The notes: generated by a model from the sequence alone, not told the origin. A stretch of DNA of 64,000 nucleotides from Polyangiaceae bacterium (GCA_046351325.1 JAXLYR010000002.1:560334-624333); one strand, 5' to 3'; counted from the stretch's first letter, positions 2,549 through 46,750 are shown. Program-made: numbers and translations.

Positions 2549-4146
2549 GATGATTGGACCTCCAGGGCCGCGGGGGTCGAGAGCGCGCGCGTCGCTACCT
2601 GCTTTGGACGGGGCAGGTGCGGCGGCCAGACTCGAAACATGAGCCTCGTGAGGAAATCGTCGAGGTAGAGCCCCGAGAACAGCCAGGGATGAAGAGCCCG
2701 GGCGAACGCGCCATTCGGTCGAAGCGCGATTGTCGACTTCGTGATGAACAGTCCGACGAAGCCGAGGCCGACGAGCCAAAGGCCCGCTGAGCTCGATTGG
2801 AGGGTAGGCGTGGGGACGAGGCGCTCCGCCGCTGCGTGCCAGCCGAAATAGAGGGCCACGACGACCAACATGCGCAGCGCGACTCCACTCCAGATTCGGG
2901 GGCTGCGAGGGGCGCTCATGAGCGGTGGCAGCGACAGCCCGACCAAGAGCGTGAGGACGATCGCGGTCGGCCAATGCGCGGGCTTTGCACCCCAATAGGA
3001 CTGCAGGAGCGTGGCTCCGAGGAGCGCGGCGCCGGCGAACAGCAAGGAGAGAGCGCCCTCGAGGATTTGCCGGCCTATCGTCGCGGGCCTCTTCGTGAGC
3101 ACGCGCGTCTCCCAGGCTTCGACGGCCCCGCCCGCGCTCAAGAAGGCGTGGGCCTTGTAAAGCGAGTGCGCGACGATATGCAGGAACGCGAGCGGCCAAA
3201 GCCCGAGGCCACACTGCACGAGCAGGAAGCCCATCTGCGCGCAGGTCGACCAAGCGAGCGCGACCTTCACGCTTACCCGCGTCATCATGACGAGCGCCGC
3301 TGCGATCGTGGACGTCAGTCCAATCGCCACGAGGAGGAGCTGCGCCGGCTCCGCGCGCGATATCCAAGGCGCCAATCGAATGAGCACGAAGCCGCCGATG
3401 TTGACGACACCTGCGTGGAGCAGCGCCGAGACAGGGGTCGGAGCCTCCATCACTTGGGTGATCCAGCCATGAAATGGGAGCTGCGCCGACCTCAACGCGA
3501 CCGCGGAGACGAGGAGCGCTGCGGCGACCTGCATCGACAATGGCAGGTTGCTCTCTGCGCTCAGCCACGCGGCGATGACGTCGAGCTCGAAGCTGCCGAC
3601 GTTCGAGTAGACCAGCAAAAGAGCGGGCGCGAGCGCGAGGTCGGCGAGTCGACTGACCAAGAATTTTTTGTGTGCGGCGACCTGGGCCGCTTCACGGTCC
3701 TCATAGAGGGTGAGGAGCTGGTGGAGGGCGAGGCTGGTCGCGGTCCAAGAGGCCGCCATCACGAGGAGGTTATTGGAGACGACCAGCGTGGTGACCGCGC
3801 TCAAGGTGAAGAGGAGCCAGCGCTGGTAATGATGCCATCGCTCGCTCCGCCGGCCCGTGTCGCCCCCGAGGTAATTCTCTGAGAAGCGAGCGACGATTGC
3901 TCCGAGCGACGTGACCAACACGAGCATGAGGGCCGTCAGCGCGTCGACTCGAACACCGAAGTCCGACGCCGGTCGACCCAGGTCGTAAGCCCCAAAGACG
4001 ACGACCGCAAAGAGCGAGGCCAAGAGGAACGCTGCGCGGAGCAGCGCCGTGGCCCTGCGCGGGAGCAGCGCCCCGCCGAGCGCGAGCGTCACGGGGATCG
4101 CTGCGGCCACGAGCGGCGCGATCGGCCATGTCGGGAGTCCGTTCAT
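2545..4146 (-). CDS. dabB: DabB, NuoL/MrpA/ND5-like proton-translocating membrane subunit
   Basis: Polytopic membrane protein with complex I antiporter-subunit signatures (HGWITQVMEAPTPVSALLHAGVVNIGGF; HSLYKAHAFLSAGG). Sits immediately upstream of, and overlapping, dabA. ATG at 4146 (MNGLPTWPIAPLV) is preferred over the TTG at 4179. Confidence 0.8.
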   Translation of the reverse strand: MNGLPTWPIAPLVAAAIPVTLALGGALLPRRATALLRAAFLLASLFAVVVFGAYDLGRPASDFGVRVDALTALMLVLVTSLGAIVARFSENYLGGDTGRRSERWHHYQRWLLFTLSAVTTLVVSNNLLVMAASWTATSLALHQLLTLYEDREAAQVAAHKKFLVSRLADLALAPALLLVYSNVGSFELDVIAAWLSAESNLPLSMQVAAALLVSAVALRSAQLPFHGWITQVMEAPTPVSALLHAGVVNIGGFVLIRLAPWISRAEPAQLLLVAIGLTSTIAAALVMMTRVSVKVALAWSTCAQMGFLLVQCGLGLWPLAFLHIVAHSLYKAHAFLSAGGAVEAWETRVLTKRPATIGRQILEGALSLLFAGAALLGATLLQSYWGAKPAHWPTAIVLTLLVGLSLPPLMSAPRSPRIWSGVALRMLVVVALYFGWHAAAERLVPTPTLQSSSAGLWLVGLGFVGLFITKSTIALRPNGAFARALHPWLFSGLYLDDFLTRLMFRVWPPHLPRPKQVATRALSTPAALEVQSS

Positions 4147-5164: not shown

Positions 5165-8100
5165 TCAGAGCCCGAGCTCGAGCCCGAGCGCGATCGTCGC
5201 CGCGTGCGTCGGGATCGCGTAGAACGCCCGTCGCGTCGGCTCCTCGCGGATGCGCGCGGCCCGCGTGTGGAGCCGCTCCAGCGCGTCGCGCGCCGCGTGC
5301 GCGGCCCGTGGATCGCTCGTCGCCATGAGCGCGCGGACCCACGCGAGGCAGACGACGGCCTCGCCCTCGTCGAGCACCCAGCGGCGCGCCTCGGCGTGTT
5401 CGATGGCCTCTCCGCGAGCGTGACAGCGCGCGCAGCGTCTCCGGCGGCGAGCGTCGCGAGCGCCTCGGTGGCGGTGGCGTACGGCAGGTGTTGCGGGTGG
5501 AGCTCGGCGCGCCGTCGCCCCGCGCGCGCCTCGGCGAGCGCTTGTTCGACGAGGCCTTCGGTGAGCAAGATCTCGCTCCTGTAGATGCGGCACGAGACCT
5601 CGTGGTGCATCGAGATCCCCGGCATCTCGAGGCATCGCTCGATGTGTCGCCGCCCGAGCGCGGGCCTGCCGGCGCGCGCGACCGCGAGCCCGAGGTTGTG
5701 GAGCGTGACGACGCGCAGGCCGTCGAGATCCATCCGCTCGGCGGTCGCGTACGCGGGCTCGAGCATCGCGATCGCGTCGGACAGCAGGCCGAGCTCGATG
5801 CTCATGAAGCCGGCGTTCGCGCGGTCGACCGCGGCGGAGCGCCGATTGCCGGCCTCGTCGTGGAGCGGAAACGCCCGAGCGAGGTGGCGACGCGCGCTCT
5901 CGAGATCGCCCGCGAGCTGTCGATCCCAGCCGAGCGCTCGTTCGAGGTAAGCGCGCACGTTCGCGGGCACCGGGTCGAGCGCGCGCGACGCCTTCTCGGC
6001 CGACGCGAAGAGCGCGCGGCGCAGCTCGGCGTCCGCGGCGAGCGCGATGCTCGAGGCGAGCCAAGCGCACCCCACGGCGAAGGACTCGACCGCGTCGGGG
6101 TCGGGCTTCGTCGCGATGAGATCGCGCAGCGCTTGCTGGAATCGGGGCGTGTCGGCGAGGCGCTCGGCGCTCATCGCGAGCTCGTAGAGCGCGACGCATC
6201 CATGGCGCGAGCCGGGTCGCAGAGCGCGGGCGGCGCGCGCGGCGTAAGCGGCCGCGCGATCGAAGCGGCCGCGCCAGCGCAGGGCCTCGGCGGCGACCAA
6301 GGCGAGGCGACCGGAGACGGGCTCGAGCGCGGGATCCTCGCGTCGCTCGAGGATCGCGAGCGCGCGCTCCGCGTGGCTCAGCGCGAGCGCGGTGTCGTCC
6401 GAGGCGAGCGCCCTCTCAGCGGCGTCGAGCCTGAACGGGAGCGCCGAGTCGGGGCGATCTCCACGTTCGAAATGCTCGGCGATCACCGCGGGATCGGCGC
6501 CCGCGAGCTCTGCGAGCCGCGCGCCGGCGCGGCGATGCCCTCGCGCGCGATCCGCTTCGGTGAGGCCTTGGTAAGCGCCCTCGGCGACGACCCGCTGACA
6601 AAACCGAAAGCGACCCGGAGCGCCGCCGTCGTCGGGCACGAGGAGCTCGAGCTCGAGCAGGCGAGGCGCCGCGCGCGCTGTCGCGCCCGGCTCGTCGAGG
6701 AGGTCGTCGACGAGGTCCGCGGTGAACGCGACGCCGAACACGCTCGCCGCGCGCAGGACGCGCCGCTCTTCGACCTCGAGCGCGTCGAGCCGGCCCTGCA
6801 CGACCGCGAGCAGAGAGTCGGGGAGCGCGTCCCCCGAGGCCTGCGTGCGCGCGAGCTGCTCCAAGAAGAGCGGGTTGCCGCCGGCGCGCTCGGCGATCTC
6901 GGTGACGCGCGTCGCGGGGGCGTCGGGTGGCAGGAGCGCGCGAGAGAGCTTGAGCGACGCCGCGCGCGAGAGCGGCGAGAGCGGCAGCCCGAGCGCGCGC
7001 GGCCCTGCGAGCTCGCGCGCCGGAGAGTCGTCCTCCTCCTCGAGCGGCCGACCGAGTGACACGATTGTAATCGGCGCCTCGGAGAGCGTGCGCTGCAAGC
7101 GGGCGAGGAGCGCGGCGCTCGCGCGGTCGGCCCACTGCGCGTCGTCGACGATCAGCACCGTCGGGGTCCGCGTCGTCAGCGCGCGCACGACCTCTTCGAA
7201 GGCGCGGCGCATGGCCTCGGCGGTGCCAGTCGGATCGCCGAGCCTTGCCTCGAGCCCGAGCGGCGCGCGCACGAGCGCCCCGAAATCCGCCAGCGTTCGA
7301 GCGTCGAGCGCGGGGCCGACGGACGCAGCGAGCTTCGTGATCGCGCGATCGATCTCGGCGCTCGACGAAGAGGTCGTCGCGCCGCAGAGCGCCCCCGCGA
7401 GGTGCGCGACGCACGCGAGCGCGCTCCCCGCCTCGAAGGCGTCGGCGGTCGCACGATAACAACGAAAGCCGAGCCCGCTCAGGCGTCGCTCGAGCTCGAA
7501 CGAGAGCCTCGTCTTGCCCGCACCGGGCGCGCCGGTCACGAGCGCGGCCCCCGCGGTGCGCTCGTCGCGCGACTCCTCCGCCAACGTGACGAGCTGGGTC
7601 ATCTCGCGATCTCGCCCGACGAAGGGGCCCCCGCCAGTCCCGGTCGGTAGCGCGAGTCGATCCATCGAGATCCAAGCGCCGGACGCGTCGTGCTCGACGG
7701 CGAGGTGCGGCTCGAACGCCGCGACGGCCTGGTCATCGAGCGCGATGCGCTCGACCGCGCCGCGCGGATCGGCGAGCCGCGCGCGAGCTGCCGCGAGTCG
7801 CTCGGGCGCGCGCGCCACGAGCGGTTCGCGAGAGGAGTCCTTGTCGACGCGGAGCACGCCGAGCCACGTGCGCTCGGCCCAGCCGGCCTCGACGAGCTCG
7901 GCCGCGCAGCGGAGCGCGGTCGTCGCGAGCTCGACCAGCGTGGCGCCGCGATCGACCACGACCGCGAAATGCTGTTCGTCGATCGCCTCGGGCGTGCCGA
8001 ACCGCGCGCAGCTTCGCAGGAGCCACGCGACCGACTCGTCGGCCGCGCCCGTGTGATCGAGCTTCGCGATGACGAGGCCGGCGACGCGGACCTCGTGGTC

Positions 8101-31780: not shown

Positions 31781-33613
31781 GTGCCGTTGGTAAAGGTGAG
31801 GGGGATCGTCAGGCTCGGGGGCTTGGCCGTTGGGGCGTTGGCCGTTGGGGGCTTGGCCGTTGGGGGCGCGTGTGATGCGCGCCGCTCCCAGCAAAACTCG
31901 GCCTCCAGCGTGGTCGTCGCGCCGTCCGCATCAGCGCCGTCGGCTTCTCAGGCGCGCGGCTCGACGTCACCCCGTTCGGGCGCGGGCGACCCTATCCCGC
32001 CTTTGCTCCTCGATACTCGGTCGGTCGGCGCGAGCCCGGACCCGGACCCGATCGTGGCGACCATGGAGCCGCTGCCTGCAAAGTACGCTTGTGCGACGCT
32101 GACCGCCCGTGGCCACAAGCTGCGCAAGGTCCCTCGGCGAACAGCGGATACCTATGCAAAGTGTAAAGCTGTACTTGACGCACCCGCGGGTGACCTCCAA
32201 TCGTGTGTAGAGCTCGCGAGGCTCCTCGAGGTCGCTCCCCGCGACGAGGTGCTTAGTGACAACGTCGCAGCGCGGGCGTGTGCTCGGGGCAACCGAGTCG
32301 CCTGTCGCAGGCTCGCGCTGGGGCGGCTCGACTCCGGCGCGCGGTTCGATCCCATCTGTGCGGCGAGTCTATTGGACACACTCTGCGGCGAGGGCGATCT
32401 GTCGGCCTGCTTTCGGCTCGGCACCCTCAAAGTGGAGGGGGAGCTCGCAGTCCAGGACGTCGCGGCCGGCGAAGCGCTGGTCAAGCGCGCTTGTGACGAG
32501 GGCGAATATATGGCGTGTCTCGACATCGTCGAGCGCGGGGCGCACAAGCTAGTAGGTGGCCAGCGCCCGTCGGAGATGTCCGACGAGGAGAAGCGCCGCA
32601 TCGTCGAAGGGGCGTTCACCAGCGTCACGAAGGCCTGCTCTCTCGACGACGCAGACGCTTGTTTGGAGCTCGGTCGAGCCTATTCGCACGCTGGACAATG
32701 GTATTATCTAGCGTCCCAACCGGCCGACGAGGCGAAGTCGGTCGCGGCGAATCGCCGCGCGTGCAACCTCGGACTCGAGGACGCCTGCAGTGAACTCGAG
32801 CGTGACCAGCGGACTGACACGTACAAAGACGACTGTGACGAGTCGCGTATGGCGTGTGCGCCGCCGCTCAACTCCAAAGACCCCGACCAATATCCCGAGT
32901 GGATATTTCATCGCTGTGCTGCGGGCTGGGACAGCGCATGCGAGGGGCTGAGGCTGTCTCTGCGCGTCAACCGTTCGAAGGATCCAGCCGTGATCGAGCG
33001 CCGCACGCGCGTGCTCGAGACGGGCTGTCTCGAGGGCGCGGCCGGCGCCTGCTCCTTCTTGTTGGTGGGCAAGCTCGGCCCGTTCGAGCCCTCCGAGGCC
33101 TTCTTGAAGACTGGCTGTGAGCTCGGGGTCGCGGAGAGCTGCCGTCGACTCGCGACCAAGGCCGGCGCGACTGGCGACCACACTCTGGAGCTCGAATATC
33201 TGGAGCTGGGCTGTCCAGTCGTGACGCCGCTCGGGGGGACCTCGACCTCGCGGCTCGCGTGTCGACTCGCAGGCCTCATGTACAAAGACGGCGTCGGCAC
33301 CCAGCCCGATCTCGGGCGCGCGGCGATCCTCCTCCAGAAGGGTTGCGTCGAGCGTCGCTACGTCCTCGACGGTGAGTCCTGCCTGGTCCTCGGGACGATG
33401 TTCGAGAGCGGACTCGGCGTGGAGAAGAACCTGGCCCGCGCCCTCGACCTTTATGCAGCAGGCTGCGCGGACGAGAATTACATGGATATCGTTCGGTCGC
33501 GTGCGGAGCGACGCCGCTCTCCGAACAGCCCTCCACTCGAGCCCAAACCCGAGCGGCGCGAGCCCTCGGCCTGCGCACGACTGCGAGCGAGCGAGAGCGG
33601 GGGTGCCCAATGA
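31781..33613 (+). CDS. Sel1/Hcp-like Cys-rich repeat lipoprotein
   Basis: Lipoprotein-type signal (…LAVGGLAVGGAC). Repeated AC..G...AC..LG..Y..G.GV..D modules. The N-terminal signal is encoded by 15-bp tandem DNA repeats. Confidence 0.7.
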   Translation: MPLVKVRGIVRLGGLAVGALAVGGLAVGGACDARRSQQNSASSVVVAPSASAPSASQARGSTSPRSGAGDPIPPLLLDTRSVGASPDPDPIVATMEPLPAKYACATLTARGHKLRKVPRRTADTYAKCKAVLDAPAGDLQSCVELARLLEVAPRDEVLSDNVAARACARGNRVACRRLALGRLDSGARFDPICAASLLDTLCGEGDLSACFRLGTLKVEGELAVQDVAAGEALVKRACDEGEYMACLDIVERGAHKLVGGQRPSEMSDEEKRRIVEGAFTSVTKACSLDDADACLELGRAYSHAGQWYYLASQPADEAKSVAANRRACNLGLEDACSELERDQRTDTYKDDCDESRMACAPPLNSKDPDQYPEWIFHRCAAGWDSACEGLRLSLRVNRSKDPAVIERRTRVLETGCLEGAAGACSFLLVGKLGPFEPSEAFLKTGCELGVAESCRRLATKAGATGDHTLELEYLELGCPVVTPLGGTSTSRLACRLAGLMYKDGVGTQPDLGRAAILLQKGCVERRYVLDGESCLVLGTMFESGLGVEKNLARALDLYAAGCADENYMDIVRSRAERRRSPNSPPLEPKPERREPSACARLRASESGGAQ

Positions 33614-34017: not shown

Positions 34018-34059
34018 GTCGCCAGCCGGGCAGGGGTGATTGGTATATCCTCTGCCAAC

Positions 34060-35187
34060 ATGCGAGTGCTCGATTGGGTTATTGCCATTGCGACCTTGGC
34101 GTCGATGGGTTGTGGGGATGACGGGTCGCAGGGGGGCGGCGGCGCTGGCGGCTCGCCCATTAGCGGCGGCGCAGGTGGGCTGGGCACGGGTGGGGACGGC
34201 GGCGCCAGCGTCGAGAGCCGCGTCCTCGTCTCCGTCGCGCTCCACCTCGAGCCCAGCACTGCTTATTCCCAGTGCGCTGTGGCTGGTTATTACGGGACCC
34301 GTGACCGCCTCGTCGAGTTCGTCAAAGCGACCAGCGCGCTCGGCGCGACGCTCAACATCCAGTCGGACAATACCTTCTTGGAAGGGATCCGAGACTGCGA
34401 AGCGACCGCCACGCACACGAACACGGACGGGATGAGCCTGGGTGATTGGCTCGCGGCGCAATCGGGGGTCGAGTTCGACGCTCATAAAGAGGGCGGCAAC
34501 GAGCTCAACGGCACAGGCACTGGGCCTGACGATTTCCTTTACGCTGATGTCCACGCGCTCCTCGACGCGGACGTACCGAACCCGAGCGACGTCGTCGGTG
34601 GCCTCATTTGGCAGGACGCCAATCAGCTCGCCCGACTGGAGGATCCTGCGGGGGCGACGGGCGTCGATCCTGCCTCTCCTCCTTGGTTCCCCGCGATCCT
34701 CAGCCTCGCTGTCGGCACGAACCACCACCTCGGGAACTTCGACGACGACGACTTCTCGAGCGGCGTCTGGCGCCCCAAAGGCGCCAACGCGGACTTCACG
34801 ACGGACGACCCGGCCAAGCTGCCTTATGTCGGGCCGGGGCTTCAGCACACCGACTGGGGCAACACCTGTCCTTATGGCTTCCACGACGCGCGTGATTACA
34901 TCCCTGTAATCCTCACGATGGTGGACGAGGGGTCAGCCGCGCCCGGGCTCTACACCGCGACGCTCGCTTTGCCCGAGGACACGTTGAAGCTCGGGGACCC
35001 TGCGGGGCGGTGGGCGCACGCCATCGAGATCATCGAGGGCGTCAATGAGCTCGCCGCGGCCGACGCCCGAATCCAGTGGGCGAACTACAGCACAGTCGTC
35101 GAGACGTGGCAGACGGAGTTCGCGAGCTCACCGACCCGCGTCGCGCTCACCGACATCCCCGCCGAGCGGTGGACCTGCGCTCCGTGA
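34060..35187 (+). CDS. Hypothetical lipoprotein with a Gly-rich linker
   Basis: MRVLDWVIAIATLASMGCGDDGSQGGGG. Alternative GTG start at 34036. Confidence 0.55.
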   Translation: MRVLDWVIAIATLASMGCGDDGSQGGGGAGGSPISGGAGGLGTGGDGGASVESRVLVSVALHLEPSTAYSQCAVAGYYGTRDRLVEFVKATSALGATLNIQSDNTFLEGIRDCEATATHTNTDGMSLGDWLAAQSGVEFDAHKEGGNELNGTGTGPDDFLYADVHALLDADVPNPSDVVGGLIWQDANQLARLEDPAGATGVDPASPPWFPAILSLAVGTNHHLGNFDDDDFSSGVWRPKGANADFTTDDPAKLPYVGPGLQHTDWGNTCPYGFHDARDYIPVILTMVDEGSAAPGLYTATLALPEDTLKLGDPAGRWAHAIEIIEGVNELAAADARIQWANYSTVVETWQTEFASSPTRVALTDIPAERWTCAP

Positions 35188-36345
35188 TCAATCGGCGAGA
35201 GACACGCTGAGCGGAGAGGCCACCAGCGTCGGGACCTCGGGCGCGCGCACGCTGAGGCCGAGCGCGTCGAGCGACTCCATCGTGTGGGCACGAGCCAAGA
35301 TCGCGACGCGCGCCTTCATCGCGCCGGTGGGGATCGGCACGGTCGCGTCGCGCGCCTCGCCAGGACTCAGCGTCGACGAGCGCATGGACGTCGCGTCGAC
35401 GAGCAGCGTGACGGGGCCGCTCGCGCCCTCTCCGAACACACCGAGGACGAGCGGCGATTCGTGGAGGACTCGGCCGTCCGCATCGACATCGCCGTAAGCG
35501 GAGAGCACCACGTCGCGCTCGTCGAGGAACTCGATTCGCACCCATATACGACGTAGCGCCGCGACCCCCGTCGGGACTGCGTGGCCCGCGCCCGAGTTCG
35601 AAAATCGCACGCGCAACGCTCCATTGTCTGACTCTGCTGTCAGTGTTAGCGCGCGCTCGAGCATCGCTCGGCTCGCCTCGGCGCGCTCGTCGCGCGCGGC
35701 CTCGTCCGCCCCCCAAGCCGCTCGCAGCCCGACGAAGGTGTGGTCTCTCAAGCTGCGTTCGGACGGACCGCCGTCGGCCGCCGGTCCTTCGGCGAGCGCG
35801 GGCATGTGACAATCGATACAGCTCTCCTCACCACCGCCGGCGCGGAAGGCGCTGTACTCCGCGGCCGTCGACTCCACGAAGTGAACAGGACCAGTGACCT
35901 CGTGACACGTGAGGCAGAGCTCCGCGTCCGCGAGGAAGCCAGCAGGCCGCGCGCCGTGTGGGCCGCCGTCGCTGCCGAGCGGGCCCGCCGGCGGACGCCC
36001 CAAGTCGACGATGAGCTTTCCGTCGCGCGGCTCCACGTTGCCGAGGGCGTCATGACAAGAGACACACGAGACGTGTTCGTCGGGGCTGTGCTTCGGCTTG
36101 TGGCAAGCATCACAGCGCTTGCGCGCGCCGATCCCCCAAGCTGCCTCGACGCGCGGGCGTAGCGCATTGAAGACTGGGGAGTCCGCGCTCGTGCCGTGCG
36201 CCGAGTCCGCTTGCTCGCTTTGCTGGCGAGAGTGACACGCCCCGCAGTCGGCATCCTCCATTTGCTCGGTGTCCGGAGGCGCTGCGCACCCGAGCGTCCC
36301 GAGCGCGCCGGAGAGCGCGACCCACAGGAAGACTGAGCGGCTCAT
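35188..36345 (-). CDS. Pentaheme c-type cytochrome lipoprotein
   Basis: Five CxxCH motifs (CGACH, CDACH, CVSCH, CLTCH, CIDCH). Signal with Cys (ALGTLGCAAP). ATGA overlap with the upstream outer-membrane-protein gene. Confidence 0.8.
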   Translation of the reverse strand: MSRSVFLWVALSGALGTLGCAAPPDTEQMEDADCGACHSRQQSEQADSAHGTSADSPVFNALRPRVEAAWGIGARKRCDACHKPKHSPDEHVSCVSCHDALGNVEPRDGKLIVDLGRPPAGPLGSDGGPHGARPAGFLADAELCLTCHEVTGPVHFVESTAAEYSAFRAGGGEESCIDCHMPALAEGPAADGGPSERSLRDHTFVGLRAAWGADEAARDERAEASRAMLERALTLTAESDNGALRVRFSNSGAGHAVPTGVAALRRIWVRIEFLDERDVVLSAYGDVDADGRVLHESPLVLGVFGEGASGPVTLLVDATSMRSSTLSPGEARDATVPIPTGAMKARVAILARAHTMESLDALGLSVRAPEVPTLVASPLSVSLAD

Positions 36346-36932
36346 GGCTGGACGTGGACCGACAGCCCGAGGATCGCTTGGCCGAGTCCGAAGGTCCGAT
36401 ATTCCTCCCCGACCGAGCCCGACCAACCGAGCGCGGACCGATCATGGCCGAGGTAACCGATCGCTTTCAGGTCTGTAAATAGAGACAGCTCGTCGATGAG
36501 CGCGACGTCGAGGCCGGCGCCCGCCTGGAGTCCAAAGAGGACGTCATCGGAGCGGGGGCCGTCCGGCTGATCGGGGTCCTGCAATGAGAAGACGACACAC
36601 ATCCCCGCGAGCGGTCGGATTCGTACGCGCTCCCCGAGCCGAATGGGAACGAACATATCGAAGCCGACAGGATGGTCGTGGCGAAACCCTCCAGGGCTGT
36701 CGACAAAGACAGCCTCGGCGAAGAGCTCCAGTCCAAACCACTTGTGGGGCACGATCGCCAGGCGTCCGCCCGCGCCTCCACCCGAGTAAGCGCCAGCCCA
36801 GCCCACGCCATAAGCCGAGAGCGAGATCATTCGATCGAAGGTCGAGAGGCTGGGGGCGTCTTCGGCGGCGAATGTACTGTGCGTTACGAATAGAGATGCG
36901 CCGACGACAAAGGAGAAGACGAGCTTCCGCAT
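36342..36932 (-). CDS. Small outer-membrane beta-barrel-like protein
   Basis: Signal peptide MRKLVFSFVVGASLFVTHSTFA, about 196 aa, alternating amphipathic strands with Gly/aromatic-rich composition. Confidence 0.55.
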   Translation of the reverse strand: MRKLVFSFVVGASLFVTHSTFAAEDAPSLSTFDRMISLSAYGVGWAGAYSGGGAGGRLAIVPHKWFGLELFAEAVFVDSPGGFRHDHPVGFDMFVPIRLGERVRIRPLAGMCVVFSLQDPDQPDGPRSDDVLFGLQAGAGLDVALIDELSLFTDLKAIGYLGHDRSALGWSGSVGEEYRTFGLGQAILGLSVHVQP

Positions 36933-37010
36933 GACGAGCCTCCACCCGAGTCGATCGAATGTCGACTTGGACAACCTCGAGTGGAGCGAGCCGTTCGTTC
37001 TTCTGATCGA

Positions 37011-38204
37011 TCAGGCAACGAATCCCTTCGGGATCTCGCGGAGCCCCGACTGGGATGGAGACCGCTCGAAGCTCCGCGCCAGGTTCGCGGAGCACGCCCA
37101 GCCGAGCGCCTGGGGGACCTTGCGGCTCGTGAGGAGCCAAGCCGTCGACTCAAAGTCCGCGAGCTCCACCCCGAAGAGCCATACGTCATTGTCGCCGACG
37201 AGCGCAGCGCGCGACCGAACACCGCCCTCCGTCGGGCCGGCTCCAAAGATGTATGTGTCGACGTCGAACATGCGCGCCCGCTCTTTGGCGACAATGGCGC
37301 AACGCTCGAACTCGGCGCGGGTGCGCCCGACTGCGCGGACGACTTCGGACCGCCGGTCGAGGACGACGACAGCCCGCGCCTCGTTGCCACGCTCGAGGAG
37401 CTCGCGGAGGGACCGCGCTTCGAGCGAGCCCCCGACGAAGGTCGCGATTGGCGGCGGCGCTGAGCTCGAATGGGAGCCCACGGGCGTCGGCGGAGCCAAG
37501 CCCAAGCGGGACACGGCCGCGCCATAGCTGCTCGGCCTGGTTGCACACCATATCCTGTGTGCGGCGCCGCTCGGGTGAACCCCCAAGAGGGCGACTGTCG
37601 GGCTCCTGAAGGCGACGAAGTCCACCGCCCCGTTCAGCTGACAAGACAGTTCGTCAGGGACGCTCGAGCGAGCCGCAGGAGGCGCGCTGTCCACGGTGTC
37701 CTGGTTTGCGACCTCCACCCAAACGGCGCCCGGAATGGATTCACGAATGGAGCGCGCGCTAGGGGCAGCGGGGGAGTGCGGGCGCGCCGCGAACGCGTCG
37801 AGAGTGAAGGTCAGCGCTGTATCGTATTGAGTGAAGTGGTTGCGAGTCAGAAAGACGGTGCGCCCACCCTCCAGTTCGGAGAGCGCGCCCGTCGACCGCG
37901 CGATCTGGTGGTGCAGCGCGGCCCGCACATCGTCGTAGGACACGACGCCCCAAGCCACGAGCGTCTCACCGAGAGGCAAGCGCCGCTGCCTGCACTCTTC
38001 AACGACAGAACGCAGCGCCGAATCCTCGATTTGGCAACGCGCTTTGAGGGCGCGCACGAACTCGAGCGGGTGGGTCGAGGTGGTCGCCCAAGCGACGCGT
38101 CCGCGCTGGAGGTAAACGTGAATCTCGACCGTCTTGGAGCTGGCAATGAACTCGCCACTCGCCTCCGCCCTTGTAAGTGCTTCGAGTTCGTCGAACGGTC
38201 GCAT
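37011..38204 (-). CDS. Hypothetical protein with an N-terminal DUF4388-like domain
   Basis: AGGAGG sits 7 nt before the ATG. N-terminus GEFIASSKTVEIHVYLQRGRVAWATT is typical of DUF4388. Sits between the enhancer-binding protein and the outer-membrane/cytochrome genes. Confidence 0.5.
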   Translation of the reverse strand: MRPFDELEALTRAEASGEFIASSKTVEIHVYLQRGRVAWATTSTHPLEFVRALKARCQIEDSALRSVVEECRQRRLPLGETLVAWGVVSYDDVRAALHHQIARSTGALSELEGGRTVFLTRNHFTQYDTALTFTLDAFAARPHSPAAPSARSIRESIPGAVWVEVANQDTVDSAPPAARSSVPDELSCQLNGAVDFVAFRSPTVALLGVHPSGAAHRIWCATRPSSYGAAVSRLGLAPPTPVGSHSSSAPPPIATFVGGSLEARSLRELLERGNEARAVVVLDRRSEVVRAVGRTRAEFERCAIVAKERARMFDVDTYIFGAGPTEGGVRSRAALVGDNDVWLFGVELADFESTAWLLTSRKVPQALGWACSANLARSFERSPSQSGLREIPKGFVA

Positions 38205-38377
38205 TGCACCCCTCCTGTCCCGACTGTCGACTATGCAACGATCGGACTCACGGGCCTCGCGGGCGGTGTTCCCGTCGGACTCGGCTCACACGCAGCTTCG
38301 AGGTCCGAATGGCAGGCAACGGACCGTCGAGACCCGACGGCCGAGTGGCGGAACTCGACATGGACTGTCGGAATCCG

Positions 38378-39727
38378 TCAGCGCAGGCCCAGCTTGCGGA
38401 GTTTGTCGCGCAGGGTGGAGCGCGGCAGGTCGAGGGCGCGGGCGGCGCGCGTGAGGTTGTGGCCGTGGTCCGCCCACGCCCTCACGATGAGGTCTCGCTC
38501 GAAGTCTCTGAGGCTGTTGGATTGGACAGGCACCTTCGGCTCGGAGGGCGGTGTGATGCTCGGGCGCGTCAGCCGAGGCATCTGCGCGAGCGCTACGCGA
38601 ATGTGCTCCGCGTCGAGCGTGCCGGCCGTCGACACGATGGCCGCGTGGTCCAGGACTGCGCGCAGCTCGCGGACGTTGCCCGGCCAAGACGCGCCACGCA
38701 GGAGCTCGAGCGCGTCCTCGGTGAGGTCCACGCTGTCGAGGTTGTGGCGCTTGCTGAACGCCTGGAGAAACTCTCGCGCGAGCGTCTCGATATCGTGGAC
38801 TCGCTCGCGGAGCGGCGGCAGCGAGATCGTGAACCCGGCGAGGCGATAGAGAAGGTCGGGTCGGAGATGCGCGGCGCTCAGGCTCGAGAGGCGATTGGTC
38901 GCGCTCACGACACGCGCATCGAGGGGGCGATCCTGGTTCGATCCCAAGCGACGGAACCTCCTCGTCTCGAGCACGCGCAAGAGCTTGGCCTGCGTGGCCA
39001 GCGGCATCTCCGTGACCTCGTCGAGGAAGAGCGTGCCGCCGTTCGCGGCCTCAGCCAACCCGATGCGCGGCGTCCTCGCGCCCGTGAACGCGCCCGCCTC
39101 GTGCCCGAAGAGCTCGCTCTCCAAGAGCTGCTCGGGGATGGCCGCGCAATTGACAGCAATGAAAGGACGGTCGGGGGCGTGGCTGAGCCGATGAATCTCC
39201 TCGGCCACGAGCTCCTTGCCGGTGCCTGTCTCTCCGAGGATGAGGACTGACACTTCACGGTAGGACGCCACGCTCCGGACCTGCTCGCGAACGAGCCGAA
39301 TCGCCAGCGTATTGCCGAGGATCGCGCTGTCTCCGAGGGCGACCTCGCGGGCTGGGAGGAGGGCGCGCACGTCGTTGAGCAGCGCTTCGAGCGCGGCGCG
39401 GGAGTAGGCCTGACTGCGCGCCGCATATCGCCGAGGAGGCTCGGGCTGCACGAGGAGGAGAATGGTGTCGTGCGGGACGACGCTGTTCACGACCGGGCAC
39501 CGCTCACACTTGGACGCTGTGCAAGCAGGGCACGCGCGTGGGACCAGGGTCGAGGTGCGGTCGAGCAGCTTGGCCACGTAGTCTTGAGAGGCCAGCATCG
39601 CCGCGGCGTGATCCACAGTCCCGGCGATCTCGAGGATGGCGTGCGCTTGCCCCACCACGTGCGCGACACGCTCGATGATCTCGCTGTCTTCGCTGATGAG
39701 CGCAACCTTCGGTGCTGGTGGCGTCAC
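38378..39727 (-). CDS. Sigma-54-dependent transcriptional activator (NtrC family): REC-like domain + CxxC-x4-CxxC knuckle + AAA + HTH
   Basis: GETGTGKE Walker A, GAFTGA motif (HEAGAFTGA), ESELFGHE, C-terminal Fis-type HTH. Inserted motif [14 protein letters not shown]. Confidence 0.85.
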
Positions 39728-40083: not shown

Positions 40084-41559
40084 TCAGCGGGTCTCGAACG
40101 CTACAGGTCCATTCGAGGCGCACCATCGCAAGAGCGCGCCCGTCACGCCGCGTCTCCGCGGATGGACGACCAAGTGCGTGCGGGGCGCGGGGCTCGCGCC
40201 CTCTTCCTCGGACCAGCCGCCTACATTTACGTAAGTCGATTCGCCGTGAGCGAGCTTCACGAGCCTCGGCGTGTGGGTGTGGCCCATGACCACGAAGCGC
40301 GAGGGGAAGAGCCTGACCAACTTGCTAGCTCGCTCGCGGAGCCGATCGTCGGCGTCCACCGTTCGTTGATTGGCGATATACCGATAAGCCACCATCGAGA
40401 GACCGAGGACGGCCGCCGCTCCAATCCAGAACGCGGCCCCCGGCAGGCGGAGCAGCGCGAGAATCAAGAGGGCTGTTCCCGCGACGAAGAGGAGCGCGAG
40501 CCGATCGACCAAGAGGCTCGCCATCACGCCGCGCACGGTCCTCGTGATGGGGGGTGTCTGGAGCACGCGGGCCGCGCGCACGTGTCGCAGCCGGATGCGA
40601 TGCCTGCGAGCGAAGCGCACGAGCGCCCCCCAATGTTGGCGCCGCAGGGTGCGCGCCGACGCCGACCAGTGCTGCCGCCACAGCCTGAAGAGCTGCGCCA
40701 CCGCTCGGACATAGCGCCAAAAGAGCTGCGTCATGCCGACGAGCCCCATGCGCACGCCGAGTCGAACATAATCGACGACGCCGAGCTCCTCATGACCGTG
40801 CTCGGGGAGCCCGCGCGTAGGGCGGACCACGTGTCGCAGCAAGACCTCACAGAACCCGAACGAGAGGCGCTGACGGTCACCGGCAGCGAGCGGCATCATC
40901 GGATGATCGGTCGCGCAGAACGGGTCGTATTGGTGGCCGTGCTCGACGTAGACGGCCCCCGCCACGTAATAGAACCAGGGGTTGTGGTCGACGCGCGCCG
41001 CGAAGTCGCGGCGTGAGATCGCGGTCGTGCGATGCGCGAGCAGGATCTCGAGGAGCTCGGCGCGGACAGAGCCCCAATAGAGCTCCAAATCATGATTGCC
41101 GTGCACGAACGTGAGCGCGTTGCCGGCCTCGACGAAGGCCGCGAGCGCGGCGAAGACCTCGGCGTGGCGCTGGGCCACGCGCCGCAGCTTCTCTCGGCTG
41201 TGGTCTTCAGCGTTGCCGAGGCCGTGAGCGCGCTCTTCCTCGGTCAGGGGGGTTTGGAGCGACAGTCCGTCGGGGGCGACGGACATGCCGATGAAGTCGA
41301 TGAAGTCACCCGCGACGACGAGCCGCCAGCGCCGGCCCTCTGCGGGCGTGCGCCGATAATGGTCGAGGAGCCCGACGAGGTCGCGATCGACCTCGGCCGA
41401 GCGACGCGCGCCGTGAGGCGTGAGGTCGTTGATGTCGCTACCGAGGTGGACGTCGGACAGGACGAGCAAGCTCTCTTTGAGGGGAGCTCTCCCGCGCGTC
41501 CGGTCGAGTCGTGCGCGCAGCCATGTCATTGTCTTCAGCGTGGTGCTTCGGGTCCTCAC
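40084..41559 (-). CDS. Membrane-associated calcineurin-like metallophosphoesterase
   Basis: Motifs LVLSDVHLG, GDFIDF, GNHD, GH. TM helices in the C-terminal half. Probable start at 41529 (MTWLRARL). Confidence 0.7.
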   Translation of the reverse strand: MRTRSTTLKTMTWLRARLDRTRGRAPLKESLLVLSDVHLGSDINDLTPHGARRSAEVDRDLVGLLDHYRRTPAEGRRWRLVVAGDFIDFIGMSVAPDGLSLQTPLTEEERAHGLGNAEDHSREKLRRVAQRHAEVFAALAAFVEAGNALTFVHGNHDLELYWGSVRAELLEILLAHRTTAISRRDFAARVDHNPWFYYVAGAVYVEHGHQYDPFCATDHPMMPLAAGDRQRLSFGFCEVLLRHVVRPTRGLPEHGHEELGVVDYVRLGVRMGLVGMTQLFWRYVRAVAQLFRLWRQHWSASARTLRRQHWGALVRFARRHRIRLRHVRAARVLQTPPITRTVRGVMASLLVDRLALLFVAGTALLILALLRLPGAAFWIGAAAVLGLSMVAYRYIANQRTVDADDRLRERASKLVRLFPSRFVVMGHTHTPRLVKLAHGESTYVNVGGWSEEEGASPAPRTHLVVHPRRRGVTGALLRWCASNGPVAFETR

Positions 41560-42711: not shown

Positions 42712-43479
42712 CTACAGCATGAAGCCGGCGACGATCGCGCCGACTAGCATGAGCGCGCCGAACACGAGGAGCGCGCCGCCGAGCGTGCGCCTGCCTGTTC
42801 GTTGTTCGGTGAGCCCCGCTTCATCCGAGTCGAAGACTCGCACGCCGGCCCCCGCGCTCTCGAACAAGCCGAGCCCGTTTGGCGTCGGCGCGACCCAACC
42901 CACTACGCTGATGAGCTCTCCCGGCTCGATGCGTGTCTCCAAGACGGCCTCGATGTTCTCTCCGCTGCCACCGAGGCGCTGCCCCATGCTTCGCTGCTGC
43001 GCGGTGGTGAGCGGCCCGGCGAAGGCCCCGCCCACGACGATGAGTCCGCTGCGGTTCGTCCAATAGTATTGCGTCTTGACCACCGAGATCCTCGCGGTCG
43101 AGACCAAGAGCCACGCTGCGCCGTCGACGATGTAGAAGTCACGCTCGAGCCTCTCGACGGTGTGCAGCACGCGCCGAGCGACGAGCTGCGCTGCCGTCTC
43201 GTAGAAGACAGTCGGCACGGCCGCCGCAGGACTGAGCTCGACGCCGCGCGGGCCGGGCTGAGCCACGCCGCGGACCCGGACGCGCGTCCCTGGTCGCGCG
43301 GCCGAGAGCGGTGTCAGCGGGAGCTTCGCGTCTCGGACGAGGGCGCTCATGCCGCCGCCGAACATGATGAAGAGCCCGAACGCGGCGAGCGCGAGCCCCA
43401 TGATTGCGCCACCCACGCAGAGACCCATCAAGTCCCGCGCGGCCCCCGCCAAAGCCGTCATTCGAATGAAATACCTCAC
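42712..43479 (-). CDS. Hypothetical membrane protein
   Basis: N-terminal and C-terminal TM helices flank a soluble domain. 255 aa. Confidence 0.45.
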   Translation of the reverse strand: MRYFIRMTALAGAARDLMGLCVGGAIMGLALAAFGLFIMFGGGMSALVRDAKLPLTPLSAARPGTRVRVRGVAQPGPRGVELSPAAAVPTVFYETAAQLVARRVLHTVERLERDFYIVDGAAWLLVSTARISVVKTQYYWTNRSGLIVVGGAFAGPLTTAQQRSMGQRLGGSGENIEAVLETRIEPGELISVVGWVAPTPNGLGLFESAGAGVRVFDSDEAGLTEQRTGRRTLGGALLVFGALMLVGAIVAGFML

Positions 43480-43561
43480 GTTCGGGCGCGGGGAGAGTGC
43501 CCTTCAGTTTCCGCGGGGGCTCGAGGATGATGCGCGCCGTCGAGTACGAGAAGGTTCACGC

Positions 43562-44602
43562 ATGAGCAAGGCTGTTGTCATAGGCGGGGCGGGATTCATC
43601 GGGCGGCGACTCGTCGAGATGCTGGCTGGCAATGAGCCACACCCCGATTGGGCTCGCTTCGATCATGTCCACGTCGTGGACTTGGCGCCCGCGACCATCG
43701 CAGAAGGTGAAGCTCCGCGCGTCACCACCGCGAAGGCGGACGTGCGCTCCCACGACGATCTGCGGCGCGCGTTCGAAGGCGCGGACACCGTCTTTCATTT
43801 GGCGTCGGTCGTCGACGTCGGCTTGAAGAAGAGCGCGACGATCGAGCCGACGAACGTCGGCGGAGCGCGCAACGTCGTGGCTGCGGCGCGCGAGGCCGGG
43901 GTGCGAGCGCTCGTCTACACGAGCTCCGAGGACGTGTTGCTCTCGGAGATCCCCGTGCGCGGCGGCGACGAGACCATGCCTTATCCGGCGCGACCGATTC
44001 ACGACTACGTGCGGACCAAGATCGAGGGCGAGCGCATCGTCCTCGGCGCCGACGATCCGAGCGGCCTTCGCACGTTGGCGATCCGCCCCGTCCACGTGTA
44101 CGGGCCCCGCGATCCGCATGCGATCGTCACGAGCCTCCGCGCCTTCGCGAAGGGCTCGGTGCCGTTCCTCCTCGGGAACGGCGAGGCGCTCTTCGACGTC
44201 GTGTACGTCGACAACGTCGTCCACGCCCACCTACTCGCGGCGCGCGCGCTCCACGAGGCTCCCCATCGCGTCGCGGGCCGCCCCTACATCGTGAACGAGG
44301 ACCACGCGGTCAACTACTTCGAGTGGCTGCGTCCTTATGCCGCGCGCAAGAACGTGAAGATGCCTCGCTTGCGGCTCGGGCGCAGGCCGACCCACGCCCT
44401 CGCGCGGGCGATGGGCCTCGTTCATCGCGTGACCGGTCTCGAGGTTCCCTTCCATTCCTTTCACGCGCACGTCATCGGCGAGGATTTCTACTTCTCGTCG
44501 CGCCGAGCAAAGACGGAGCTCGGCTACACGCCGATCGTCTCCGTCGAGGACGCGCGGCGCCGCACGCTCGAGTGGCTCGATCACGTGGCGCTCGAGGGCT
44601 GA
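43562..44602 (+). CDS. NAD(P)-dependent epimerase/dehydratase (3-beta-HSD-like)
   Basis: VVIGGAGFIGRRLVEML Rossmann motif; YxxxK (YVRTK). Confidence 0.8.
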   Translation: MSKAVVIGGAGFIGRRLVEMLAGNEPHPDWARFDHVHVVDLAPATIAEGEAPRVTTAKADVRSHDDLRRAFEGADTVFHLASVVDVGLKKSATIEPTNVGGARNVVAAAREAGVRALVYTSSEDVLLSEIPVRGGDETMPYPARPIHDYVRTKIEGERIVLGADDPSGLRTLAIRPVHVYGPRDPHAIVTSLRAFAKGSVPFLLGNGEALFDVVYVDNVVHAHLLAARALHEAPHRVAGRPYIVNEDHAVNYFEWLRPYAARKNVKMPRLRLGRRPTHALARAMGLVHRVTGLEVPFHSFHAHVIGEDFYFSSRRAKTELGYTPIVSVEDARRRTLEWLDHVALEG

Positions 44603-44673: not shown

Positions 44674-45501
44674 ATGAACGAGCAGACGAAGGATGAAGTT
44701 CGCGCCGCCGTGCGGGATCAATACGGCAAGGTCGCACGGCAGAACGCGACGGGCTGCGCGCCCAGCTGCTGCGGCAGCGGCGCGGACATGAGCTTGAAGC
44801 TCGGCTATTCGGCCGAGGATCTGGCGGCAGTCCCCGAGGGCGCGAACATGGGTCTCGGGTGCGGCAATCCGCAGGCGATCGCGGCCCTCAAGGCTGGCGA
44901 GACGGTCCTCGACCTCGGAGCAGGTGGTGGCTTCGATTGCTTCTTGGCGGCCAAACAGGTCGGTCCGACGGGCAAGGTGATCGGCGTCGACATGACACCC
45001 GACATGGTGTCGAAGGCCCGGGTCAACGCACAGAAGGTCGGCGCGACCAACGTCGAGTTCCGCCTCGGGGAGATCGAGCATCTGCCTGTCGCTGACAATA
45101 CTGTAGACGTCATCCTCTCGAACTGCGTCATCAACCTCAGCCCGGACAAGGGCGCCGTCTTCCGCGAGGCCTTTCGTGTCCTCAAGCCCGGCGGTCGTCT
45201 CGCGATCTCGGACGTCGTCAAATTGAAGGCTCTGCCCGAAGCACTCGAGCGCGACATGGCGGCGCTCACGGGGTGCGTGTCGGGGGCCGCGACGGTCGAC
45301 GACGTGCGAGCCATGCTCGCTGCGGCAGGCTTCGGCACTGTCGTGGTCGACGTCCGGCCCGAGAGCCGCGAGTTCATCCGCGAGTGGATACCGGACTCCA
45401 ACGTCGAGGACTTCGTCGCCTCGGCTGCCATCGAGGCCGTGAAGCCAGGTGGGAAGTCCTGCTGTGGCCCCTCGTGTTGCGAGCCCGGAGCCTCGGCGTG
45501 A
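44674..45501 (+). CDS. arsM: Arsenite S-adenosylmethionine methyltransferase
   Basis: SAM-binding motif VLDLGAGGG. Conserved Cys signatures [25 protein letters not shown]-terminal CCGPSCC. Confidence 0.8.
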
Positions 45502-46115
45502 TCGACGCCGCGGCGCGCGGTGCATGGCGCGAGCTCGAGACTCGCCTCAGGCCGTTCATCGCGCGGCGCGTGCCCACGGCGAGTGATGTCGATGACGTTG
45601 TACAAGATATTTTCTTGCGAATGCAGCGCGGCTTGGGTGGTCTTCGCGACGACGAGCGCTTCGGGCCCTGGGTGTACCAGGTCGCGCGGAGCGCCATCGT
45701 CGAGCATCGACGCTCCCTCGCGCGCCACCCCATCGCCGAGGGCGTCACGGTGGAAGAGCCCGTCGAGGACGGTGACGATCGCGCGGTCGAGGAGGAGCTC
45801 GCGCTCCACGTCGCGCCGTTCGTCGCGATGCTGCCGTCGCCCTACCGCGAGGCCCTCACCCTCGTCGAGCTCGAGGGCCTCACGCAGAAGCAGGCGGCCG
45901 AGATGCTCGGCGTTTCGCTCTCGGGGATGAAGTCGCGCGTGCAGCGGGGGCGCGTGCAGCTGCGCCGCGCCCTCGAGGATTGCTGTCACATCGCGCTCGA
46001 CGTTCGAGGTCGCGTGGTCGCCTGCGAACCGCGACCGGATGGGCGTCTGCCGAGCGGGTGCTGCGAAGCGACTCGGTGCGCTGCGAGCGATTCACCCTCG
46101 AGCCGCGCGCGTTGA
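45498..46115 (+). CDS. ECF sigma factor with a C-terminal Cys-rich extension (CorE/ECF44-like)
   Basis: Sigma-2 ([10 protein letters not shown]…) and sigma-4 ([25 protein letters not shown]) regions, then [36 protein letters not shown] start overlaps the arsM TGA. Confidence 0.7.
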
Positions 46116-46390
46116 TTGGCCCCGCGCTCGTGGGTCGCGCAGTCTACCAGAAGTCGCCGGAGAGCCGCGGGTAGCTTGCACACCTCGCAAGCAATCAGCC
46201 TTCTCTTCTAGGTCGAGACCAGTGAGCGGCGACGTGAACCGCACTCGGGTTTTGTCTTTTTCGAGTTCGCAACGGGAATGTTTGCGGAGTGAGGAGCCTT
46301 GCCCTGTACGATCCCTCCTACCGGTCCAGTCTTCCGCCGAGTGGCCCCGAAAACACAGCTGGGTCGCTTCCGCGCAGAAAAGGAAGGGCT

Positions 46391-46750
46391 ATGAACATCT
46401 CGATCACGTTCCGGCATATGGATGGCACGGATGCGGTCAAAAACTATGCGAACGAGAAGATCTCTCGGCTGCAGAAGTTCCTGCGTCAGGCGATGACGGC
46501 GCAAGTCACGCTCTCCGTCGAGGGCTTGGAGCACATCGCTGACGTGCGCATCCACTCGGGGAGCGCGACGTTCCACGCGAACGAGCGCAAGGAGGACATG
46601 TACGCTTCGATCGACCTCGTCCTCGACAAGCTGGAACGTCAGATCCACGCCCAGAAGGGGGCGAACGTCGCAAAGAAGCACGGTGGGATGAGCGCTGGTG
46701 AGTTCGCGGTCGCGGTCGAACGCGAGTCGCAGCGCGGCACGCGCGGCTGA
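46391..46750 (+). CDS. hpf: Ribosome hibernation-promoting factor / sigma-54 modulation protein
   Basis: MNISITFRHMDGTDAVKNYANEKISRLQKF. AGGAAGG RBS. Confidence 0.85.
   Translation: MNISITFRHMDGTDAVKNYANEKISRLQKFLRQAMTAQVTLSVEGLEHIADVRIHSGSATFHANERKEDMYASIDLVLDKLERQIHAQKGANVAKKHGGMSAGEFAVAVERESQRGTRG

Follow-up and report, generated by a model that had tools for sequence, protein, structure and literature searches.

In the outer-membrane conduits MtrB, the Pcc complexes and Cyc2, the barrel is built of 16-26 strands and sheathes a periplasmic cytochrome. The pentahaem c552/PHC family of cytochromes is widespread. The enzyme of sulfur respiration, sought for a long time, has recently proved to be one of its members, and the others have no known function. 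Cytochrome c552 of T. tepidum (PDB 5ZE8) is described as a soluble cytochrome of low potential from a purple sulfur bacterium, with no function assigned (PMC11976967). MccSep (ExtKL) of Geobacter sulfurreducens (PDB 9WT8/9WT9) is a polysulfide reductase consisting of a five-haem cap and an immunoglobulin-like (Ig-like) stem, and its catalysis requires the haem-2-ligating C239 and the selenocysteine U325, which is provided by a D-G-U-P loop of the Ig-like domain (PMC13510729). The title of a reference cited in that work ties the porin ExtI to selenite uptake and to the localisation of the lipoprotein ExtH (PMC13510729). In PtdA-PtdB, an uncharacterised pair from marine Alpha- and Gammaproteobacteria, Nitrospirales and Planctomycetes, a PHC-family gene is located beside the gene of an outer-membrane barrel (10.1101/2023.11.21.568154). 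Here, a stretch of 64,000 nucleotides from a Polyangiaceae bacterium (GCA_046351325.1 JAXLYR010000002.1:560334-624333; hereafter the window, G+C content about 68%) was analyzed, in which the gene of a small outer-membrane beta-barrel protein (the barrel) is followed by that of a pentahaem c-type cytochrome lipoprotein (the cytochrome). The original prediction, made from this sequence, had described both as the distal part of a redox-regulated four-gene operon, downstream of a sigma-54 activator and a DUF4388-like protein.

Comparison of related loci indicates that the barrel and the pentahaem lipoprotein form a conserved, translationally coupled two-gene cassette of the Myxococcota, which spans positions 35188-37006 together with its predicted promoter (Table 1). 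All four genes of the proposed operon are present on the minus strand, and the five CxxCH motifs of the cytochrome were confirmed, as was the overlap of the barrel stop codon with the cytochrome ATG, which can be read directly as ATGA in ...cagccATGAgcc.... The cytochrome and the barrel are identical to the NCBI proteins U0271_09435 and U0271_09440, respectively, both of which are encoded on a contig of 1.14 Mb. For the barrel gene, the TTG at position 36974 was considered as a start codon and rejected, as it lies only 7 nucleotides (nt) past the −10 element, while the ATG at position 36932 has a GGAGG sequence and agrees with the NCBI protein.

The related loci comprise 38 with a clear cytochrome homologue in a collection of species-representative genomes, consisting of metagenome-assembled genomes (MAGs), and seven metagenome contexts. 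According to the homology searches, cytochrome homologues are restricted to metagenomes and MAGs of the Myxococcota; the carriers represent at least 38 species-level MAGs, none of which is cultured. A barrel homologue of about 200 amino acids (aa) is located directly upstream of the cytochrome gene on the same strand in 37 of the 38 genome loci, a recurrence by which the adjacency exceeds chance, and likewise directly upstream in all seven metagenome contexts. The 4-nt overlap between both genes is kept in 21 of the 38 loci, and three more show an overlap of 1 nt. Five CxxCH motifs are retained in 37 of the 38 loci and in all full-length family members. Homologues of the DUF4388-like protein or of the N-terminal domain of the activator were found beside the pair in none of the approximately 45 related loci, and genes of AAA+ activators, present in three of these loci, are never adjacent to the cassette. 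In the closest relative (L013/L015; 71% and 64% identity), the pair stands alone behind an intergenic region of 400 bp. Since only the pair is kept together across the related loci and homologues of the upstream genes are missing there, the conserved unit consists of two genes and not of four. No description of such a barrel-cytochrome cassette was found in the literature, in line with the original statement that the locus does not match a named system; the pair itself is real and conserved.

The alignment of the regions upstream of the barrel genes revealed a two-block motif, TCAGAA(A)-N16-CCAC. In the window, it starts 5 bases past the stop codon of the DUF4388-like gene and ends 48 nt before the barrel ATG. 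TCAGAA-N16-CCAC occurs once in the 64-kb window, for which 0.07 occurrences are expected; a looser form of the motif was scanned as well. In 19 other loci, the motif recurs with identical spacing and precedes the barrel gene by 33-78 nt, or by 187 nt in one locus, which gives a total of 20 among 41 loci, the window included. It also precedes an adjacent sigma factor gene of the extracytoplasmic function (ECF) type in 10 loci. In total, 31 matches were detected on both strands of 966 kb of sequence from the loci and the window, of which 20 lie before barrel genes and 10 before ECF sigma genes. The same motif before the sigma gene and before the neighbouring cassette is thus the signature of an autoregulated ECF regulon with the cassette as a local target, and the motif upstream of the barrel gene is the presumable ECF-dependent promoter of the cassette.

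In roughly 20 loci, an ECF sigma gene and an overlapping gene of a single-pass membrane protein adjoin the cassette, mostly upstream and occasionally downstream or in divergent orientation. The sigma factor of about 178 aa was identified by matches to Sigma70_r2, r4_2 and TIGR02937. The overlapping gene codes for a protein of about 275 aa with one transmembrane helix and a helical C-terminal domain, which is presumed to be the anti-sigma factor. Both genes are preceded by that of a secreted protein of about 380 aa with a beta-rich C-terminus, for which no Pfam match was obtained and upstream of which no copy of the promoter motif is present. Besides the example given in Table 1, this three-gene set was found in L003, L017, L019, L021-L024, L026, L027, L030, L032, L034, L036, L043 and L046. 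Three loci (L012, L016 and L037) contain the motif and no sigma gene in the available sequence, which in L012 includes just about 350 nt ahead of the barrel gene. The cognate ECF sigma gene of the source genome presumably lies outside the window.

An ECF sigma gene is present at positions 45273-46115 (+) of the window, with matches to Sigma70_r2 and r4_2. It was considered as the cognate gene and rejected, as its product is 30% identical and no TCAGAA-N16-CCAC is found upstream of it. The open reading frame (ORF) following it (46039-46542) has no Pfam match and could code for its anti-sigma factor.

A different motif, GTTGCC-N17-TCCAC, was observed 73-85 nt upstream of the barrel ATG in nine Myxococcaceae-type loci (L010, L020, L028, L029, L031, L035, L041, L042 and L044). 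It shares the −10-like block TCCAC with the motif described above and differs in the −35-like block. In L004 and L010, a gene of the Haem_bd family (PF14376) is oriented divergently from the cassette.

Table 1. Positions of the cassette, of the neighbouring genes and sites discussed in the text, and of one cassette-linked gene set from a related locus.
Feature	Position	Strand	Basis or remark
Pentahaem c-type cytochrome lipoprotein, 385 aa	35188-36345	-	five CxxCH motifs, lipobox, c552/MccSep (PHC) fold
Small outer-membrane protein (barrel), 196 aa	36342-36932	-	signal peptide, 8-stranded beta-barrel, new family
Predicted ECF-sigma-type promoter TCAGAA-N16-CCAC (−35/−10 elements)	36981-37006	-	comparative motif
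DUF4388 (PatA_N/PATAN)-like protein, 397 aa	37011-38204	-	PF14332 match below cut-off
Best sigma-54-like site, TGGCGAGTTCATTGCC	38142-38157	-	inside the DUF4388-like ORF
Sigma-54 enhancer-binding protein (activator), 449 aa	38378-39727	-	Pfam and NCBIfam matches
CxxC-x4-CxxC cluster (C66, C69, C74, C77) of the activator	39497-39532	-	
Three-gene set beside the cassette (secreted protein of about 380 aa, ECF sigma factor, single-pass protein of about 275 aa)	L047:2724-5311		

The structural model of the cytochrome (predicted local distance difference test, pLDDT, 78.7) combines a helical five-haem domain at the N-terminus with an Ig-like beta-sandwich at the C-terminus; the latter carries the sequence GHAVPTG and gave no match in a permissive Pfam search. 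The fold can be superimposed on 5ZE8, including the Ig-like sandwich, and is thus of the PHC/c552 type; the cytochrome represents a new subfamily of this known fold family. Its signal peptide ends in the lipobox LGTLG-C20. In all 18 sequences that reach to the N-terminus, the lipobox Cys is conserved, and a lipobox is present in all 38 scored loci, although the search itself required one. Cys20 is followed by A, G, S or T in 31 of the 38 loci, mostly by A or G, and in none by Lys. These features are consistent with lipid attachment at Cys20 and with sorting of the lipoprotein to the outer membrane.

Beyond the haem-binding motifs, the alignment of the cytochrome family shows only four invariant His residues (H50, H130, H202 and H255) to serve five haems, and Met, Lys, Tyr or Cys residues that could provide a further ligand are not conserved. 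One haem is therefore left without a conserved distal ligand. This pattern of conservation suggests an open or weakly ligated fifth haem, to which a small molecule could bind. In addition, E158, T160 and E163 are invariant and located at the position of the MccSep active-site pocket.

Matches from Thiodiazotropha and Chromatiales were examined as further cassette members and rejected, since they are distant multihaem proteins with a GHxxPTG motif and no adjoining small barrel. The proteins found in L056 (5434-7122; Candidatus Thiodiazotropha endolucinida), L053, L055, L057 and L058 are larger multihaem proteins (562 aa) with the motif N-x-T-G-H-x-x-P-T-G, and their source organisms are sulfur-oxidising gammaproteobacterial symbionts.

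The barrel protein has a signal peptide and eight antiparallel amphipathic strands. Its AlphaFold2 model (about 170 mature residues, pLDDT 80.8) shows eight strands and matches the solved structures of 8-stranded members. The protein from the window has no Pfam match, and a single family member gave a match to OMP_b-brl (E-value 0.006); the barrel is a new family within the known fold class of 8-stranded outer-membrane barrels. R84-H85-D86, C112, Q185, H193 and many Gly residues are invariant in the family alignment. Judged by the hydrophobic alternation along the strands, R57, E73, R84, D86, R106, C112, Q185, H193 and nine Gly residues probably face the lumen, and H85 and H87 probably point outward near the predicted extracellular rim.

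Taken together, the locus is best explained by a cassette of the barrel and the PHC-fold lipoprotein that is transcribed from an ECF-type promoter, with the two upstream genes being separate from it. Based on the comparative data, a probability of about 60% is assigned to this explanation as a whole. An envelope signal would free the ECF sigma factor from its anti-sigma factor and thereby induce the cassette. The cytochrome, attached to the outer membrane by a lipid at Cys20, would then work with the barrel on the periplasmic face. Since the barrel is far too narrow to enclose the cytochrome, it would most likely be a docking partner, a narrow conduit for a small substrate, or both. Electrons would be relayed through the four bis-His haems to the fifth haem, which, lacking a conserved distal ligand, would act on a small inorganic or reactive species instead of merely shuttling electrons. 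Judged by the wider class of multihaem enzymes, reactive nitrogen, sulfur or oxygen species are candidates for the substrate.

Several points weigh against this explanation. The orthologue of the cognate ECF sigma factor is not encoded in the 64-kb window, and the promoter was assigned from comparative sequence only. The closest relative shows only the one-mismatch form TCAGAA-N16-CCAA (L013:9789-9814), which precedes its barrel gene by about 190 nt, and the regulation of its cassette may differ. Co-transcription by read-through from the DUF4388-like gene is possible, because the stop codon of this gene lies just 5 bases before the promoter and no terminator separates the two. The placement of the lipoprotein on the periplasmic and not on the surface face is an assumption. 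Finally, the open fifth haem is deduced from missing conservation and not from a haem-bearing structure, and in the model the low-confidence loop comprising residues 102-138 could supply a haem ligand.

In a rival explanation, which is regarded as less likely, the cytochrome is a pure electron carrier. All five haems would be six-coordinate, the protein would be a periplasmic shuttle or store tethered to the outer membrane, and the barrel would serve as its anchor only, with no catalysis involved. This would agree with T. tepidum c552, the closest structure, which has no assigned enzymatic function. The missing ligand could be a non-conserved residue donated by the poorly modelled loop, and a His is found at position 151 in 13 of 21 family members. 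A carrier of this kind does not account for the restriction to four invariant distal His residues, nor for the invariant E158, T160 and E163 where MccSep builds its active-site pocket. ECF-controlled induction would also be better suited to a response enzyme, although this is only an inference.

It seems unlikely that the pair is a minimal conduit across the outer membrane, in which invariant His, Cys, Arg and Asp residues of the barrel bind a metal or haem and, together with the pentahaem lipoprotein, carry electrons across like a miniature porin-cytochrome complex. The barrel is conserved to a degree that is unusual for an outer-membrane protein; the conserved residues include R84-H85-D86-H87 near the predicted extracellular end of strand 4, C112, which is predicted to face the lumen, and H163 and H193. 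The coupling to a multihaem lipoprotein is tight, and PHC-type cytochromes pair with outer-membrane barrels in known systems. However, a barrel of eight strands has no space for a haem protein, and no cofactor site can be demonstrated from the sequence. According to the prediction, H85 and H87 point outward instead of forming a lumen site with C112. In addition, no second, surface cytochrome is conserved beside the pair.

The operon model of the original prediction, in which the activator senses redox state or metal through its four Cys residues and drives all four genes from a −24/−12 promoter, is quite improbable. All genes are located on the same strand with short gaps, and no terminator was detected between the DUF4388-like and the barrel gene in a scan for sigma-70 promoters and terminators that returned nothing meaningful. 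The activator is a genuine sigma-54 enhancer-binding protein, an AAA+ protein with a GAFTGA loop and a Fis-type helix-turn-helix domain (Sigma54_activat, PF00158, E-value 1.3e-60; AAA_lid_14; HTH_8, E-value 5.8e-11). However, a search for a −24/−12 promoter upstream of positions 38204 and 36932 gave nothing above background. With TGGCAC-N5-TTGCW and up to two mismatches, no match was found in the 35-40 kb region of the window. Weighted sigma-54 scores upstream of 38204 and of 36932/36974 reached 14-15.5, which is background level (3-8 sites per kb and strand). The best site with the GG-N10-GC pattern, TGGCGAGTTCATTGCC, lies 47-62 nt inside the DUF4388-like ORF and upstream of no start codon. 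Its score class comprises 21 sites in 128 kb (both strands of the window), or about 0.16 per kb and strand, and it is probably a chance match. The association of the four genes is missing in all related loci, the closest relative included, and the barrel gene is preceded by an independent conserved promoter.

The proposed Cys sensor was also found to be poorly conserved. The CxxC-x4-CxxC cluster is present between the N-terminal 60 or so residues and the AAA+ domain of the activator, with the sequence C66-P-A-C69-T-A-S-K-C74-E-R-C77. A word-indexed search with the N-terminal 141 residues returned no match, and an exhaustive HMMER search identified only three relatives of this domain among 1.84 billion representative proteins. 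All three are activators with about 50% identity along the entire sequence. Among the four aligned sequences, D56, P63, C74 and C77 are invariant. One CxxC is thus conserved in this small family, whereas C66 and C69 are located in an insertion of 5-7 residues that is found only in the activator of the window. The REC-like character ascribed to the N-terminus is only weakly supported. It gave no Pfam match even in a permissive search, and its comparison with a receiver profile by hhalign reached a probability of 9% over the first 49 columns, which extend over just the first half of the domain. This comparison places the invariant D56 on the phospho-acceptor Asp; the acidic pair of receiver domains is not conserved among the relatives.

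The label of the DUF4388-like protein is tentative, as the match to PF14332 (residues 7-122, E-value 1.8e-4) scores 21.9 bits, below the cut-off of 25 bits. The protein contains a weak MshE-type motif for cyclic di-GMP, and its C-terminal half gave no match in a permissive Pfam search. A relative of the activator, P0031, is encoded in L061 (8001-12691; CP089984.1, a complete genome of 12.2 Mb) with no cytochrome nearby. There, the genes following that of the activator code for a HisKA/HATPase kinase, a REC-DUF4388 protein whose C-terminus is Roadblock-like, and a Roadblock/LC7-like protein of 121 aa. The DUF4388-like protein of the window shows no significant pairwise similarity to the REC-DUF4388 protein, and both are linked only via the shared Pfam family. 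This single context points to one signalling module that includes both the activator and a DUF4388-type protein. The DUF4388-like protein probably functions in signalling and belongs to the activator upstream of it, not to the cassette, and the two genes appear to be a separate module that adjoins the cassette in this genome only. The regulatory part of the original prediction is thus not supported, as the sigma-54 sites upstream of the genes do not exceed background, two of the four Cys residues occur only in the protein of the window, the related loci carry no homologues of the upstream genes, and the barrel gene has a predicted ECF-type promoter of its own.

Sigma-54 scans of L060 and L061, the loci of activator relatives, remained at chance level. 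In L061, two GG-N10-GC sites occur just upstream of a divergent gene of the major facilitator superfamily (7820-7835) and of a gene of 501 aa (4025-4040), with the overall count at chance.

It is very improbable that the cytochrome is the Myxococcota orthologue of the polysulfide/selenite reductase MccSep (ExtKL) with a barrel that imports sulfur species: the family profile matches MccSep with an E-value of 2.4e-12, the architecture of five-haem cap and Ig-like stem is shared, and the route of polysulfide across the outer membrane is unsolved for MccSep, but the NCBIfam ExtKL match is weak (26.6 bits against a cut-off of 250), and in a family defined by a conserved Sec or Cys the proposal is contradicted at the defining residues, as C239 (C239-C240) falls in a two-residue insertion absent from the cassette family (EPTLTEF) and U325 aligns with the Val or Ala after the invariant GHAVPTG (GHAVPTG-V). 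As both catalytic residues are missing, the cytochrome is not an MccSep-type enzyme.

Beyond the ECF-controlled cassette preferred here, a bolder proposal may be added, which is regarded as doubtful. Instead of being a passive anchor, the barrel might hold a metal or another cofactor by its invariant Arg-His-Asp-His, Cys and His residues, and together with the lipoprotein the barrel might form the smallest known outer-membrane redox relay, induced by an ECF sigma factor. If this were true, the relay would allow the largely aerobic Myxococcota to deliver electrons to something at the cell surface or to detoxify it.

With respect to the surroundings of the cassette, a gene of 383 aa with a Gly-rich N-terminus (34036-35187, +) is convergent on the cytochrome gene, and its final base abuts the cytochrome stop codon with zero intergenic space. 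Neither Pfam nor NCBIfam gave a match for its product, and all related loci lack a homologue. Further away, a Cys-rich protein of 610 aa with a Sel1-repeat match below threshold is encoded at 31781-33613 (+). A calcineurin-like metallophosphoesterase of 491 aa with a hydrophobic segment is encoded at 40084-41559 (-), upstream of the activator gene and separated from it by a gap of 356 bp; in L003, a Metallophos gene is located about 9 kb away from the cassette. The gene at 43349-44602 (+) belongs to the 3-beta-hydroxysteroid dehydrogenase/isomerase family (E-value 6e-52) and may bear on sterol metabolism. Sterol metabolism is known in the Myxococcota.

The cassette defines a Myxococcota-wide PHC subfamily that is predicted to be lipid-anchored, has lost the catalytic residues of MccSep and is coupled to a new small barrel. 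No new chemistry is demonstrated by this finding. The ECF sigma/anti-sigma pair located beside the cassette in about half of the related loci provides an experimental handle for inducing it. For genome annotation, the locus is a caution, as a sigma-54 activator gene that adjoins others in the same orientation is no evidence of regulation here.

In comparison with autoregulated ECF modules, the cassette is similar in its two-block promoter with a fixed spacing of 16 nt, which is found before both the sigma gene and the neighbouring target, and in the overlap of the sigma gene with that of an anti-sigma-like protein with one transmembrane helix. It differs in that the sigma gene is not adjacent in the window. 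The −35 element TCAGAA(A) and the −10 element (T)CCAC were matched here to none of the catalogued ECF groups.

The barrel shares 10-18% sequence identity with the small 8-stranded barrels OmpA N-domain, NspA, OprF-N, OmpW and PagL. In contrast to these, it has its own invariant set of RHD(H), C, Q and H and ends in H-[FLV]-x-x and not in an aromatic residue. The cytochrome is about 19-20% identical to T. tepidum c552, from which it differs in being a lipoprotein that is always paired with a small barrel gene, and in the invariant Glu (E158) at the position where c552 has a Cys. With MccSep it shares the five c-type haems in the cap and the Ig-like stem. In MccSep, a GH-x-x-P-x-G segment of the stem reaches the catalytic haem, and the stem of the cassette cytochrome carries GHAVPTG. 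Both genes are also found in clusters with an outer-membrane barrel gene, which is ExtI in Geobacter and is described as a much larger porin. The cassette cytochrome lacks C239 and U325, and it is a lipoprotein, whereas MccSep is soluble, periplasmic and tetrameric.

From PtdA-PtdB, the cassette is set apart by description only, the gene order being reversed. The Ptd cluster comprises seven genes, including those of tetra- and decahaem proteins and a flavoprotein, whereas the cassette conserves two genes only. The likeness to porin-cytochrome pairs that had been pointed out originally is reasonable, as adjacent genes of an outer-membrane barrel and a multihaem lipoprotein are also found in MtrCAB, Geobacter Pcc and Cyc2. 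However, the barrel of the cassette has eight strands, which is below the approximately 16 needed to hold a cytochrome or haem, and the cassette contains no separate pair of a periplasmic and a surface cytochrome. As far as can be judged from the sequences, the obligatory pairing of a small barrel with a pentahaem cytochrome under predicted ECF control is a new variation on the theme of a barrel combined with a multihaem protein.

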